From Candidatus Hermodarchaeota archaeon (lineage in GTDB: Archaea > Asgardarchaeota > Lokiarchaeia > Sigyniarchaeales > SOKP01): 64,000 nt of DNA. Below, piece after piece: positions 1,512-7,337 of this stretch (position 1 is its first letter; every line of letters begins with the position of its first letter). The notes beneath the pieces are model-generated. The model searched no databases, was not told where the DNA came from, and saw only the letters and a program-made list of their open reading frames with translations. The stretch is from contig JBHLLP010000014.1 of assembly GCA_048885525.1 (NCBI GenBank), positions 17,719 to 81,718 on the forward strand, read 5' to 3'. The position numbers were made by a program, and so were the translations under genes.

Positions 1512-1519
1512 TATCATAT

Positions 1520-1592
1520 GACAAATGATGAACTTATGACAAAGTTAGCTACTTGCTCGGTAGCAATGACGTTGTCGCCCCAAACTGATGTC
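1520..1592 (+). ncRNA. Box C/D guide sRNA, predicted to guide 2'-O-methylation of the 23S P-loop G (E. coli G2251 equivalent)
   Basis: Terminal stem GACA(1520-23)/TGTC(1589-92); box C ATGATGA 1525-31; internal stem GCTAC/GTAGC; C'-like ATGACG; box D CTGA 1585-88; D guide TGTCGCCCCA is complementary to the conserved UGGGGCGGCA. Confidence 0.75.
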
Positions 1593-1953: not shown

Positions 1954-3183
1954 TTAGAATTTTTTTTTATTGGTTTTTAATGTAGACTTACGTTCTTCTT
2001 TTGATACACTTATTTTTTCAGACTCAATTGGTTCACTCATTTTTACTTTAGTGGAGTATTTATTCGCTACTACAGGTTCAGATTCTTTTGGTAACAGCTT
2101 TCTCATCCATTCTGGAAAGGCGGTAGTAATCTGTAAATTAGTTTTCAACACAATATATGTTTCACCATTATAATTTAGTTCTTCTATAACATCGTATTTC
2201 TTTAAGAAATTAATATTTTCCATCAAGGAATCTAAAGATTTCTTTGATACTAATTTTGGTAATTTATCTTTTGAAATTAGACCATTTCTTAATTCTGAAA
2301 GAACATTGTATTTTTTAGAATCAGCCATTATTTGAAATAATGTAAAAGCATCTTCTTTTATTTCTTCCTTACTTTTCTTTTCATATTCACTATAATATTC
2401 TTGGACTTTAGGGAGGAGTAGCTCTATTAGTTCTGGTTTATCATCAATATATTCTATAACACTATCTGGAGGTATTCTTTCTGCATTTACTTCTTTTAAT
2501 AAAAGAACATATCTTTCTACTAATCCTATTTGATTTATGAAAATAAACTGTTTATCAACTAGGGTTTCGATAATTCCATTAAAATCTTTTTCAGGGAATT
2601 TTTCAATAAACCATTCTCTTAACCACTCTAATGGTATTGGACCTTTAGATAATTTTTCTAAAGTTTTAAAAATATGTCTATCATTTAATAGGATAGCAAT
2701 TTTCTCTTCTTCGGTTTTTTCCCTAGTATCTTCGATGATTGTCCAATATAAATTATTTACCCATGCTTTTATTAAAGATTCATTTTTAATTATATTCTCT
2801 TGATCATCTTCATCAAAATTACTAATGTCAGTTATATAAAAAGCAGTAAAAATTTCTTCATTTGATTGTAATCTTTCTGAAAATTCAGAGCATAATTTTG
2901 ATATTTTCTCTTCAATTTCAGGGGGAATCAGCTGATCAAGGATTATTGAAACCATTAACATTTCTTTGTTTCCTCTCGCCCAATCTGAATGAATTTCAAA
3001 ATAATAATTCATCGATTTTAGATTTTCAAAAGAATGTGTAAAAAAACCCTCACTAAATTGCTGGTCCATAATGTTAGCTACTTTACCCGCTAATTCCTTT
3101 TCTAATATATTCTTTGGATAAGAATAGAACACTAATGGACCAATTTTGCGATGAAAATACGATAATGTAACGATAGTTTTCAA
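1954..3183 (-). CDS. uDENN/longin-domain protein (NPRL2/FLCN/SMCR8-like) with C-terminal winged-helix-like repeats
   Basis: N-terminus LSYFHRKIGPLVFYSYP resembles NPRL2 FSEFHPTLGPKITYQVP; FEIHSDWARG resembles FLCN FFIKDSLARG; TTG start. Confidence 0.65.
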   Translation of the reverse strand: MKTIVTLSYFHRKIGPLVFYSYPKNILEKELAGKVANIMDQQFSEGFFTHSFENLKSMNYYFEIHSDWARGNKEMLMVSIILDQLIPPEIEEKISKLCSEFSERLQSNEEIFTAFYITDISNFDEDDQENIIKNESLIKAWVNNLYWTIIEDTREKTEEEKIAILLNDRHIFKTLEKLSKGPIPLEWLREWFIEKFPEKDFNGIIETLVDKQFIFINQIGLVERYVLLLKEVNAERIPPDSVIEYIDDKPELIELLLPKVQEYYSEYEKKSKEEIKEDAFTLFQIMADSKKYNVLSELRNGLISKDKLPKLVSKKSLDSLMENINFLKKYDVIEELNYNGETYIVLKTNLQITTAFPEWMRKLLPKESEPVVANKYSTKVKMSEPIESEKISVSKEERKSTLKTNKKKF

Positions 3184-3392
3184 TTAATGAATCTCCATTA
3201 AGATTTCTTTTATTGAATAACAAGAACAGCTCTTTTTTTCTGTTTAACCTAAATTAAATTAATATTGAAGATTATATATTATTAAAGATAAATAAATTTA
3301 TCTTAACTTACCCTCTAATATCTTAGAATAATTAATATAACAAATCAATGTAATTTATTTTAATGAATCAATAATAAAATCGGAATTTATTT

Positions 3393-4139
3393 ATGAGCCC
3401 TATAAAATTAATTGGATTTGATTTAGATGATTGTCTATTTGACTCCACGGGATTATCTGAAAGGGCCAGAATTAAAGGCCTTGATGCAATGATTAACTTA
3501 GGCTTAGAAATTGACAAAAACAAAGCGGTAAGGATATTGAATGAAATTGTAAGAGAATATGGTTCAAATTCATCAAAACATTATAATCATTTCGTAAGAA
3601 GATTGAATCAAATGGATGAAAAAATAGAATTCATGTCATATAATGATCGATATAAATATATCGCTGCTGCTGTTATGGCTTATCATGAGGAAAAAGTAAA
3701 TTCGATAAAATTATATGATGATGTTAGAAATAGTTTAAGCAGATTAAAAGAATTATCAATAAAAACAGCAATCATAACCGATGGAATTCCAATAAAACAA
3801 TATGAAAAGATATTAAGACTCAAAATTGATAAATTGCTCGATTTAGTAGTTATCTCTGATGAAATTGGAATTAAAAAACCTAATCCAGAGTTATTTACTT
3901 ACTGTTTAAAAAAATTTAAAGTAAAAGGTCAAGAAACAATATATGTTGGAGATCGGTTAGATAAGGATATAGTACCTGCTAATATAAACAATATTTACAG
4001 TGTATATCTTCACAGGGGCGGAAAGTATGACAGTTATAAAAAAGAGTTTAAAATTCAAGGCTATTCTAAGCCAGATTATGAGATCTCTAATTTGAACGAA
4101 TTATTTGATATAATTGATGAGATTAATGATAAAGAGTAA
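3393..4139 (+). CDS. HAD-superfamily hydrolase (archaeal TIGR02253-like)
   Basis: FDLDDCL motif I, ITDG motif II, KP motif III, YVGDRLDKDI motif IV. Confidence 0.9.
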   Translation: MSPIKLIGFDLDDCLFDSTGLSERARIKGLDAMINLGLEIDKNKAVRILNEIVREYGSNSSKHYNHFVRRLNQMDEKIEFMSYNDRYKYIAAAVMAYHEEKVNSIKLYDDVRNSLSRLKELSIKTAIITDGIPIKQYEKILRLKIDKLLDLVVISDEIGIKKPNPELFTYCLKKFKVKGQETIYVGDRLDKDIVPANINNIYSVYLHRGGKYDSYKKEFKIQGYSKPDYEISNLNELFDIIDEINDKE

Positions 4140-4155
4140 AAGGTTATTCTATAAA

Positions 4156-4974
4156 ATGAGAGTAGCATGTATCCAACCACAAATCTTTCAAGAAAGAAAT
4201 AAATGTTATAATGAAATTGAACGAATTTTGAGAGAGCTTTTAGAAGTACATAAAAATTGCGAAATTATATGTTTACCTGAAAGATGGGTTCCTTTATTTA
4301 AAAATTCCTCTCTTAATTTTCAAGAACAAAGGGGCAAAGATTATTCTTTTATTCAAAATTTAGCTAGAGAATACAATATTAAGATTTTATCAGGAGCAAT
4401 TTGGGAAAAAAGAAGAGGTTTTAAAAAACCTGCCATAACCTGTTACTATTTTAATGAGAATGGCGAAGAAATTGGCAGACAAGATAAAATTCACCTCTAT
4501 GCTTATGAACGCGAGTATTTTGAGTCAAGCAACGAATTAAACTTATTTAAATTGAGCAATTCCCATCTTTTTACGATTCTAATATGTTTTGATATGGCTT
4601 TTTTTGAGACTCCTCGATTGGCTGTTGAAAATGGAGCAGATATACTATTCTCACCTACACAAATAAGGCAAGATGGAATGAAAAATTGGCAAATTTATTT
4701 AAAAGCACGAGCTCTTGAAAATCGCGTACCTATAGTGGCATGTAACACTTATGGAAGATATTTGAAAAGAAATTTCATAGGGAAGAGCAAAATCATTTCT
4801 TTCCATGAAGGGAATATATCTCCATCTAAATTAAAAATCGTAGAAGGTCCAAAAGATTCAAGTGGATTTATTTTTGACAATATCGATTTAATTTTTCCAA
4901 GAAAATTAAGAAATATTCGTTTAAAAGAACAAATTGATAAAAACAAAATAAAAGTCAAAATAATTAATAACTAA
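4156..4974 (+). CDS. carbon-nitrogen hydrolase (nitrilase/amidase family)
   Basis: E-K-C triad: CLPE, DKIHL, LICFD; ARALENR. Start moved to ATG 4156 (MRVACIQ). Confidence 0.88.
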   Translation: MRVACIQPQIFQERNKCYNEIERILRELLEVHKNCEIICLPERWVPLFKNSSLNFQEQRGKDYSFIQNLAREYNIKILSGAIWEKRRGFKKPAITCYYFNENGEEIGRQDKIHLYAYEREYFESSNELNLFKLSNSHLFTILICFDMAFFETPRLAVENGADILFSPTQIRQDGMKNWQIYLKARALENRVPIVACNTYGRYLKRNFIGKSKIISFHEGNISPSKLKIVEGPKDSSGFIFDNIDLIFPRKLRNIRLKEQIDKNKIKVKIINN

Positions 4975-4995
4975 AGTATAATCTTGTAATTTGAT

Positions 4996-5952
4996 ATGAA
5001 TGGTTTAAAAGAACTAAAAAAAATCCTTTTTTGTGGTTTAGAAAGTGGTGGGAAAACATCAATATTATTACTATTAGATAAGAAATTTAGTTTATTGCCT
5101 ACAGTCAAACCAACTATAAAAGCAAAAAGAAGTTTTCATACAAACTCGTTATTGGGAACGTCAATTGTCCGTTGGGATTTAGGTGGACAAAAGAGTTATA
5201 GAAAAATATATTTAGGTCATAAGAGTAGATATTTTACCGATATGCAATCAATATTTTATGTGATTGATGTTCAAGCACCAAATAAATTTGAAAAATCATT
5301 AATATTTCTTAAAGATATTATAAATATTACTTCTGAGTCACATCCTGAAAATTTTCAGTTCTTAATATTACTTCATAAATATGATCCGGATATTAAAAAT
5401 AATAAAGAAATTCTAAATCATGTGAAGTATTTAGAAAACCAAATCTCATCTGCTATTAAAGATATTAAATATTCCATTTTTAAGACTTCAATATATGATG
5501 AACCAAGTTTATTGAAGGCTTTTTCTGATGGTGTTTTTTACGCAACCCATAAATCAAAAATGTTTGAAACTTTATTGAAAGAATATATGAGTAAAACTTA
5601 CAATAGTTCTATGCTTTTATTAGATCAAAATTGTTTTATAATTGCTAGTAGAACCACTAATGAAGATTATCAGAGAATATGTGAAGCCATCGCTCCAAGA
5701 TTAACTCAAGCATTAGAAAAGTTAGAAGAATGGGACATAAATACAATTGATATTGTGACAAATGTAGAATTTCCAGGAAAACAATCAGAATTTCAAAAAG
5801 AGGGAATAATTTTTCTTAGAAAATTAGATATAAATAACACGAGACTATATTTAGTCGCACTCTGCCTAAATAAAAAAGTGAAAATTAAATCATATGAGTA
5901 TTTACCACTATTAGCAGATAATTTAAAAAATTTAGTAGAAAGTTTTGAATAA
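4996..5952 (+). CDS. Rag/Gtr-like small GTPase with C-terminal roadblock domain
   Basis: GLESGGKTS, WDLGGQ, LLHKYD, FKTSIYDE..LKAFS (HKxD and TSI[WY]D are Rag hallmarks), followed by a roadblock-like alpha/beta tail. Confidence 0.8.
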   Translation: MNGLKELKKILFCGLESGGKTSILLLLDKKFSLLPTVKPTIKAKRSFHTNSLLGTSIVRWDLGGQKSYRKIYLGHKSRYFTDMQSIFYVIDVQAPNKFEKSLIFLKDIINITSESHPENFQFLILLHKYDPDIKNNKEILNHVKYLENQISSAIKDIKYSIFKTSIYDEPSLLKAFSDGVFYATHKSKMFETLLKEYMSKTYNSSMLLLDQNCFIIASRTTNEDYQRICEAIAPRLTQALEKLEEWDINTIDIVTNVEFPGKQSEFQKEGIIFLRKLDINNTRLYLVALCLNKKVKIKSYEYLPLLADNLKNLVESFE

Positions 5953-6143: not shown

Positions 6144-7337
6144 ATGATTGCTAAATTCAATGTAAATAAATATTATGCAGGTCCAAAAGCCTTATTTGAT
6201 CCAAATTATATCCCACCGCATCTTTTATATAGAAAAAAAGAAGAAGATTCTCTCTATTCAATTTTAAATGATTCATTATTTGATGAATTTAATCTCAATA
6301 TACTTTATCAAGGAATTAATGGTATTGGAAAGAAAGTAATAGTTAATAAAGTATTAAATGATCTTTTTAAACAAAATAGAGAATTTATTAAAATTAATAA
6401 AATTTGTGTGGATTGCAAGGAAAAACATCCTGAAGAAATAATTTTTTCATTACTAAGTAAAATAATTAGGTTATCAAATCTCAATTTCGATTTTCAACCA
6501 CTATTAAATTCAGAGATATCCCACTTATGGAATACGTTTAAATTTATTTGTAATAGGGACAATTCACATTTATTTTTTATATTTAATAACATCGAGTATT
6601 TACCACCGTATATTTTCAATAAATTTATACAATTTAGCAGGGAATCAAAAATAACTTTAATATCTACAATAAATAAAATTATACAACCTGGAACAATGGA
6701 GTTATTTTCTGAGTTTGATTTAAAAAAGAAGCTGAATTTCTATACTTATAGAGAGCTTTATTTTATTTTAAAACAGAGAGTATTATTGAGTTTTTCCCGT
6801 GAAATAGATAAAAACCTCATTAGATACATTACAGATTTGATCTGTGAGCAATATGTCCCTGTTCCGGGAAAAGGAATTCAAATACTTCGAGATTTATATC
6901 CAATATTAAAAAATCAACATTCTTTAAAAGATTTTGAAGTTTTGGAAATTTTTCAAAATGAATTTGATACATTTCACATTTCTGATGAATTCAGTATGAT
7001 AAATTATCTTTCTGAAGAAGATATATTAACAATAATATTTTTAGATAATCTTTCGAATTATTTTACTTCTAAAAATAAGTTTTATATCTCTTTAAAAGAA
7101 TTAAACGAATTATATAACATTTCATGTGAAACTTTAGAGTTTCAAAAATCTCTTAATGAATTTCGCGAATTAACTGAAGAAATGTTGAACATTGGAGTTT
7201 TAAAACCCTCAAAAAGAACATTTCACAAGAAAAGTAATAATGAGATTTTCAGTGGAGTAAATAATGATTACTTCTTCATATTGATTAATCCTAAAAAAAT
7301 AAAGGTAATTATTGATGCAATTTTTAACCAGCGTTAA
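6144..7337 (+). CDS. Cdc6/Orc1-like AAA+ protein with degenerate ATPase motifs
   Basis: FDPNYIPPHLLYRKKE N-terminal Cdc6 motif, VDC, FYTYRELYFILKQR, C-terminal WH-like region; Walker A GINGIGKK, Walker B FIFNNIE. Confidence 0.75.
   Translation: MIAKFNVNKYYAGPKALFDPNYIPPHLLYRKKEEDSLYSILNDSLFDEFNLNILYQGINGIGKKVIVNKVLNDLFKQNREFIKINKICVDCKEKHPEEIIFSLLSKIIRLSNLNFDFQPLLNSEISHLWNTFKFICNRDNSHLFFIFNNIEYLPPYIFNKFIQFSRESKITLISTINKIIQPGTMELFSEFDLKKKLNFYTYRELYFILKQRVLLSFSREIDKNLIRYITDLICEQYVPVPGKGIQILRDLYPILKNQHSLKDFEVLEIFQNEFDTFHISDEFSMINYLSEEDILTIIFLDNLSNYFTSKNKFYISLKELNELYNISCETLEFQKSLNEFRELTEEMLNIGVLKPSKRTFHKKSNNEIFSGVNNDYFFILINPKKIKVIIDAIFNQR

Follow-up and report, generated by a model that had tools for sequence, protein, structure and literature searches.

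NPRL2 (yeast Npr2) is the catalytic subunit of GATOR1 and a GTPase-activating protein (GAP) for RagA (yeast Gtr1), and FLCN and SMCR8 are GAPs for RagC/D and Arf. In Asgard archaeal genomes, Rab-, Arf-, and Rag-like GTPases number in the dozens, as do longin and roadblock proteins, and we know of no Asgard regulator that has been matched to the GTPase on which it acts. Here we describe a gene within a 64,000-nucleotide stretch of a Candidatus Hermodarchaeota archaeon genome (contig JBHLLP010000014.1, positions 17,719 to 81,718; hereafter the window) that encodes P0001, a longin protein. The gene lies 1.8 kb from that of a Rag-like GTPase, P0002, and is divergent from the run of genes for a HAD-type hydrolase, a carbon-nitrogen (CN) hydrolase, and this GTPase. 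We tentatively propose that P0001 belongs, as an archaeal representative, to the GAP-type longin class (NPRL2, FLCN, SMCR8) and is an NPRL2-like arginine-finger GAP for which the adjacent Rag would be the preferred client, though a dispensable one. With a GC content of about 0.28, the window is AT-rich; its closest relatives are Promethearchaeota/Lokiarchaeia metagenome-assembled genomes (MAGs).

A longin domain followed by winged helix-turn-helix (wHTH) repeats is the architecture described for NPRL2 and NPRL3 (PMC3747258). The loop carrying FLCN R164 is analogous to that of NPRL2 R78 (PMC7464330), and for SMCR8, R147 has been seen directed towards the nucleotide (PMC8213707). A 2025 survey of longin GAPs described a Gly-Pro (GP) motif specific to GAP-type longins and GAP subunits, found GP plus an Arg on the analogous loop to be absent from FNIP2, NPRL3, DENND, TRAPP, and adaptin longins, reported that some Asgard longins of FLCN/SMCR8 type carry both, and asked whether Rag or Arf-like GTPases partner such proteins (PMC12290439). 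NPRL2-like Asgard longins (Liu et al. 2020, bioRxiv 10.1101/2020.10.19.343400) and Asgard Rag-like GTPases (PMC10933270) have likewise been published, and Asgard archaea have no TOR kinase according to published surveys (bioRxiv 10.1101/2020.10.19.343400). GTPase and regulator genes in these archaea are generally not in operons, and an Asgard structural study found genome layout of little help in pairing the two (PMC10933270).

P0001 is the same kind of protein as the published NPRL2-like (Liu et al. 2020) and FLCN/SMCR8-type (PMC12290439) Asgard longins. For those, however, no cognate GTPase was given and the partners were stated to be unknown, whereas here the longin gene shows order-wide linkage to one Rag orthogroup; it is this specific pairing that is new. 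In common with NPRL2, P0001 has a similar size (409 versus 380 amino acids), an N-terminal longin followed by winged-helix repeats, and a conserved Arg on a longin-domain loop; NPRL2 is among its top structural matches, the GP motifs align, and the gene linked to that of P0001 encodes a Rag-family GTPase that, among eukaryotic proteins, best matches Gtr1 and RagA. It differs from NPRL2 in lacking significant sequence similarity (Pfam NPR2 null; profile E 0.22), in having winged-helix domains that match only generic winged-helix folds, and in being without a TOR pathway context. FLCN and SMCR8 share the GP and Arg signature with it (PMC12290439), and FLCN is its best match by VIA-align, but they carry a C-terminal DENN module where P0001 has winged-helix domains, and the Pfam Folliculin profile misses P0001 while weakly detecting a paralogous longin-Rag fusion in its own genome. 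The prokaryotic MglB-MglA pair offers a further parallel, a longin/roadblock-fold regulator gene adjoining a small GTPase gene; unlike P0001, which has a longin fold with the GP/Arg signature, MglB forms homodimers of roadblock domains only and has no arginine finger.

P0001 has a predicted NPRL2-type architecture

P0001 itself was without a match in Pfam or NCBIfam, and phmmer and family-profile searches of PDB sequences gave no significant route to NPRL2 or FLCN. Searching its own genome with Pfam NPR2 (PF06218) returned zero matches; the same search with Pfam Folliculin (PF11704) returned only the longin-Rag fusion paralogue on contig C57, below cut-off. Among members of the P0001 family, the recurrent weak Pfam match was Afi1. 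An AlphaFold2 (AF2) model built from 23 orthologues (pLDDT 82, pTM 0.70) consists of a longin domain followed by two winged-helix modules, each with the order helix-helix-helix-strand-strand-strand. When this model was compared with the PDB by Foldseek, NPRL2, FLCN, NPRL3, and yeast Npr2/3 were top-ranked (E 6e-6 to 7e-4), with FLCN and NPRL2 themselves at E 6e-6 to 1e-4. VIA-align gave Z 13.8 for FLCN (8dhb_J; 137 residues, 2.7 Å) and 13.7 for NPRL2 (9o5a_H; 134 residues, 2.7 Å), with FLCN and NPRL2 matches ranging over Z 13-14, 134-137 residues, and 2.5-2.7 Å; a Lokiarchaeal roadblock-longin protein scored 13.2 and NPRL3 13.0. Ordinary longins (SNARE, adaptor/AP, TRAPP, DENND1) scored 8-10, the DENND1 match (Z 9.4-9.6) being confined to the longin part. 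A shape search of the ESM Atlas returned Folliculin and SMCR8 clusters as well as eukaryotic NPR2 (PF06218) clusters, the latter aligning over P0001 residues 1-373 and 1-409.

Modelled separately, the C-terminal half again formed two winged-helix domains (pLDDT 88). The first matched MecI, cullin WHB, and MarR-type domains in VIA-wide comparisons (Z 8-9.3), and the second matched ArsR/HlyU-type wHTH domains by Foldseek, with a weak ArsR/HlyU sequence match (E ~0.1). As these matches are only generic, we do not claim specific homology of this half to the NPRL2 C-terminal domain. On the models, the architecture of P0001 is thus predicted to be of NPRL2/NPRL3 type and not the longin-DENN arrangement of FLCN.

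An invariant arginine on the b4-b5 loop is a candidate GAP-type finger

The P0001 translation contains YFEIHSDWARGNKEMLMVSII, and R70 sits in HSDWARGNKEMLM (codon 2974-2976). In the AF2 model, R70 is on the loop between strands b4 (residues 55-65) and b5 (residues 73-82), and G15-P16 opens a strand spanning residues 15-22, that is, b2. R70, A69, S66, and Y61-F62-E63 are invariant in the 23 orthologues, and since this invariance extends down to 29% identity, the alignments indicate that the motif around R70 is not a chance feature. It is kept in all 82 scored Lokiarchaeal orthologues and in order- and class-level orthologues. The constraint reaches beyond orthologues: in 44 paralogous or wider-family longin domains (25-71% identity, several architectures), at least 90% of sequences retain each of G15, P16, S66, R70, and E74, and the same holds for GP in the 23-orthologue alignment. 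A family profile aligned P0001 residues 3-36 with human NPRL2 residues 8-41, placing G15-P16 on G20-P21, at an E value (0.22) that is not significant alone. By loop position and motif context, R70 is a candidate equivalent of NPRL2 R78, FLCN R164, and SMCR8 R147.

An earlier, sequence-only reading of this DNA had described P0001 as a uDENN protein with an arginine-finger motif at Arg70. Translation of 1954-3183 (-) places the Arg in that motif at the codon given above, the longin fold is present in the AF2 model with FLCN and NPRL2 as the closest structures, and R70 is invariant in all orthologues examined. The label itself fared less well: the longin domain is uDENN-like, but the protein has neither a DENN core nor a dDENN, and two winged-helix domains stand in their place (AF2, wHTH matches).

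One Rag orthogroup accompanies the longin gene across its order

P0002 matches Pfam PF04670 (Gtr1_RagA) with 89 bits, where the cut-off is 22. Among PDB sequences, two Lokiarchaeal GTP-binding proteins match it best, 8yl2 at 7e-31, and Gtr1 (8e-15) and RagA (2e-12) come next. The translation contains the P-loop GLESGGKT, DLGGQ65, H127-KYD, and T164-SIYD; aligned to Gtr1 and RagA, HKYD falls over HKMD and TSIYDE over TSIWDE. Alignments to RagA, Gtr1, and Lokiarchaeal 8yl2 reach into the C-terminal region, to residues 220-247. On these matches, P0002 is assigned to the Rag family. There is no second Rag gene at the locus.

We compared 80 related loci from distinct species. Their syntenic order is DUF2095, wHTH, longin and, divergently, HAD, CN-hydrolase, Rag (where present), Orc1-like, SMC, ScpA, ScpB, with Rag found between the CN-hydrolase and Orc1-like genes in 38 of 65 informative Lokiarchaeal loci. 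Every genome sampled from the same order has a full-length P0001 orthologue, as does part of the class; the remaining Asgard classes gave weaker matches only (E 1e-16 to 1e-30), which we read as the longin domain alone. Some MAG records carrying a Loki-type locus (70-85% protein identity) are titled Thorarchaeota, Odinarchaeota, Hodarchaeota, or Nanopelagicaceae, labels that are unreliable.

Beyond the immediate relatives, the genes around the pair are rearranged. In family f2 and the metagenomic locus L082, the longin gene is divergent from HAD, an occasional rotamase gene, CN-hydrolase, and Rag; in family f3 (2/5 genomes) and L083, it is divergent from HAD followed directly by Rag. In family f4, all four genomes have the longin gene facing Rag directly, HAD lying beyond Rag in two of them, and the other eight genes of the window neighbourhood are gone from the stretch fetched. 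The TIGR02253 HAD (3393-4139, +) remains near the longin gene in sister families. The Rag homologues listed were close orthologues only (at least 72% identity), and reverse synteny was judged from order-level genome searches. All 20 longin-adjacent Rags, P0002 included, form one clade (SH-aLRT 98) with members from four families of the order and internal branching that follows the families, and every non-adjacent paralogue falls outside it. This tree indicates that the longin-adjacent Rag orthogroup has been inherited alongside the longin gene from the order's ancestor onward. Persistence of the pair through rearrangement is a stronger sign of functional coupling than static synteny.

Natural fusions join related longins to Rag- and Arf-like GTPases

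The genome that carries P0001 also encodes proteins in which related longins are fused to GTPases. A 487-aa protein (G000:C57:2675-4138, +; L117:2675-4138) combines a FLCN-like longin with a GTPase of Rag-like type, which matches Gtr1_RagA at 1.2e-25, and with a roadblock domain; its longin has ENGPTP (GP) and DAQARGK (ARG) and matches Pfam Folliculin at E 0.0056. This fusion is conserved in other Lokiarchaeal genomes, with ARG kept in 4/5 orthologues. A second fusion of 345 aa (G000:C5:49984-51021, +; L118:2984-4021) joins a P0001-type longin with GP and ARG to an Arf-family GTPase, and fusions to Arf-PAS-histidine-kinase modules occur in other family members, in line with the Asgard longin fusions to PAS/histidine-kinase modules described by Liu et al. 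2020 (bioRxiv 10.1101/2020.10.19.343400). A 1130-aa longin-GTPase protein (G000:C11:83107-86499, -) has lost both GP and Arg. Through the fusions, longins of the P0001 type are tied to Rag/Arf-like GTPases on evidence separate from gene order. A stand-alone GP/Arg longin of 164 aa (G000:C7:29222-29716, -) is also present and could be a dimer partner of P0001.

Weighing the proposed function and its alternatives

In the mechanism that we propose, a longin dimer, either a homodimer or a dimer with a paralogous longin, would form a docking platform for a Rag-like GTPase; R70 would enter the nucleotide pocket and stimulate GTP hydrolysis; and the preferred client would be the Rag-like GTPase that ends the HAD/CN-hydrolase/Rag unit. 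We hold to this NPRL2-like GAP reading with a little less than even confidence. P0001 probably serves other Rag/Arf-like paralogues too, because many relatives have lost this Rag and kept the longin protein intact.

Several observations weigh against the proposal. Neither Pfam NPR2 nor Folliculin matched P0001 or any of 44 family members at E≤1. No second longin gene, whether Arg-less like NPRL3/FNIP or otherwise, is present at the locus, and the longin paralogues found in the same genome either keep the Arg or are GTPase fusions; a DEPDC5-like partner was not seen at the locus either, and no dedicated DEPDC5/Iml1 search was made. The longin and Rag genes are divergent and not co-transcribed, and HAD, which adjoins the longin gene divergently in 76 of 78 loci, is a steadier companion than Rag. 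The two winged-helix domains of P0001 resemble those of ArsR/MarR/HlyU-type regulators, and its tail is basic. Rag is missing from the syntenic site in 27 of the 65 informative loci, and its presence and absence require at least five changes on the longin tree. In five Rag-less genomes, the best Rag matches have 31-39% identity and fall within other paralogue clades, so the orthogroup appears to have been lost there rather than moved. Rag-less genomes still encode the longin protein with both GP and R70, so that retention of the arginine is not due to the adjacent Rag orthogroup alone. Taken with the order-wide linkage, this makes the longin-Rag coupling real but not obligatory, and not exclusive, because Rag has repeatedly been lost while the longin protein was retained.

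In a stricter version of the proposal, the longin-winged-helix protein and the adjacent Rag would have been a true cognate GAP-substrate pair since the order's ancestor, possibly together with the HAD phosphatase, and would constitute a pre-TOR archaeal counterpart of NPRL2-RagA in GATOR1; we regard this as possible but on balance doubtful. The sequence-only reading had put forward a candidate cognate GAP-Rag pair, pointing to a GTPase with HKxD and TSIYD 1.8 kb away in the divergent run. That GTPase is indeed there (4996-5952, Gtr1_RagA match), and the longin fold, the invariant R70, and the linkage, which holds for one Rag orthogroup across four families of the order, all speak for the pair. 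Loss of the Rag in those 27 loci speaks against it, and P0001 is NPRL2-like, not DENN/FLCN-like.

Alternatively, P0001 may be a GAP-type longin for other GTPases, Arf-like or other Rag-like, with the adjacent Rag not its substrate but tied to it only by inherited gene order or shared regulation. The persistence of the longin protein and R70 in the 27 relatives without this Rag orthogroup would suit such a role, as would the supply of other clients (about seven further Rag-like and several Arf/Rab-like GTPases in the genome) and the fusion of the closest longin paralogues to Arf-family GTPases. We nonetheless consider it unlikely, given that the Rag orthogroup was never found away from the longin gene and that adjacency survives three gene orders and four families, being direct in 4/4 f4 genomes with a dispersed neighbourhood.

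That P0001 is a non-catalytic longin platform, whether a GEF (guanine nucleotide exchange factor), a scaffold, or an effector, with Arg and GP as structural or binding residues, strikes us as improbable. Longin/roadblock dimers are mostly GEFs or platforms (PMC3747258, PMC10933270), and NPRL3, which is without the GAP arginine, matches P0001 nearly as well as NPRL2 does; against this, GP plus Arg on the analogous loop has been reported only for GAP subunits, and both are under very strong constraint in the P0001 family. Least probable of all is a winged-helix DNA-binding regulator of the HAD/CN-hydrolase/Rag unit with the longin as its sensor or dimerisation module, which would fit the regulator-like domains, the divergent HAD arrangement, and a spacer with a strongly conserved 56-nt block and near-palindrome, but which leaves the invariant GP/Arg signature unexplained, relies on generic winged-helix matches (Z 8-9) to repeats that in NPRL2/3 serve protein contacts (PMC3747258), and reads as an operator an AT-rich block that may be two core promoters and whose palindrome arms show no compensatory changes in distant loci.

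Organization of the locus

The features of the locus are collected in Table 1. In the divergent run, the HAD hydrolase gene (NCBIfam TIGR02253, 193.9 bits, above cut-off) is followed after 16 nt by the CN-hydrolase gene and, after a further 21 nt, by the Rag gene, downstream of which lies an oligo-T run. The two hydrolase genes give no more than a hint of metabolic context.

The longin and HAD genes are separated by a spacer of 209 nt, within which a 56-nt block shows conservation of at least 90% in 77 loci, above the surrounding spacer. The block is AT-rich with TATA-like runs, has no other copy in the genome, and contains the near-palindrome AAGATAAAT-AA-ATTTATCTT; in distant loci, compensatory changes do not preserve the palindrome arms. 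It could be a pair of divergent core promoters or an operator, both putative from sequence. A genome search for the intergenic palindrome as a regulon motif found no second copy, and an Rfam search of the spacer gave no match.

Farther along the window, a 397-aa gene downstream (6144-7337, +) was considered as an NPRL3-like partner and rejected, being a divergent Orc1/Cdc6 paralogue (TIGR02928 1e-9, far below cut-off; GKK Walker A). It lies directly upstream of smc-scpA-scpB and is syntenic in the family, not at order level. On the other side, between the DUF2095 and small wHTH genes, 1515-1591 (+) weakly matched the Rfam model of a C/D-box snoRNA (snoTBR7, 20 bits, E 0.89).

Table 1. Features of the longin-Rag locus, in window coordinates
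Feature	Position	Strand	Evidence
P0001, 409-aa longin + 2x winged-helix protein	1954..3183	-	ORF (open reading frame) translation, TTG start; AF2 model
Longin domain, residues 1-153 (b-b-a-b-b-b-a-a)	2725..3183	-	AF2 secondary structure, VIA-align, Foldseek
GP motif G15-P16, start of strand b2	3136..3141	-	Conservation; profile alignment to NPRL2
R70, candidate arginine finger, b4-b5 loop	2974..2976	-	Orthologue/paralogue conservation; AF2 loop position
Winged-helix domain 1, residues 158-237	2473..2712	-	AF2 models; VIA-wide matches
Winged-helix domain 2, residues 250-355	2119..2436	-	AF2 models; Foldseek
Disordered Lys-rich tail, residues 376-409	1957..2058	-	pLDDT <50; length and sequence vary among orthologues
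Conserved 56-nt block in divergent spacer, near-palindrome at 3285-3304	3251..3306	.	Conservation across loci
HAD-type hydrolase, TIGR02253 family, first gene of divergent run	3393..4139	+	Pfam HAD_2 4e-21; NCBIfam TIGR02253
Carbon-nitrogen hydrolase, likely start ATG 4156 (ORF opens TTG 4114)	4156..4974	+	Pfam CN_hydrolase 4e-28
Rag-like GTPase P0002 (318 aa), putative C-terminal roadblock-type region	4996..5952	+	Pfam Gtr1_RagA 3.9e-25
P0002 motifs: P-loop; HKYD; TSIYD	5035-5058; 5374-5385; 5485-5499	+	

Implications

The locus offers a concrete, bench-testable candidate enzyme-substrate pair, accompanied by natural fusions of both protein types in the same genome. If P0001 has the GAP activity proposed for it, the arginine-finger mechanism used by GATOR1 and FLCN would be older than both eukaryotes and TOR. 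Should P0001 and P0002 prove to be a cognate pair, P0002 would become the first small GTPase of the Asgard archaea to have a regulator assigned on genomic grounds.

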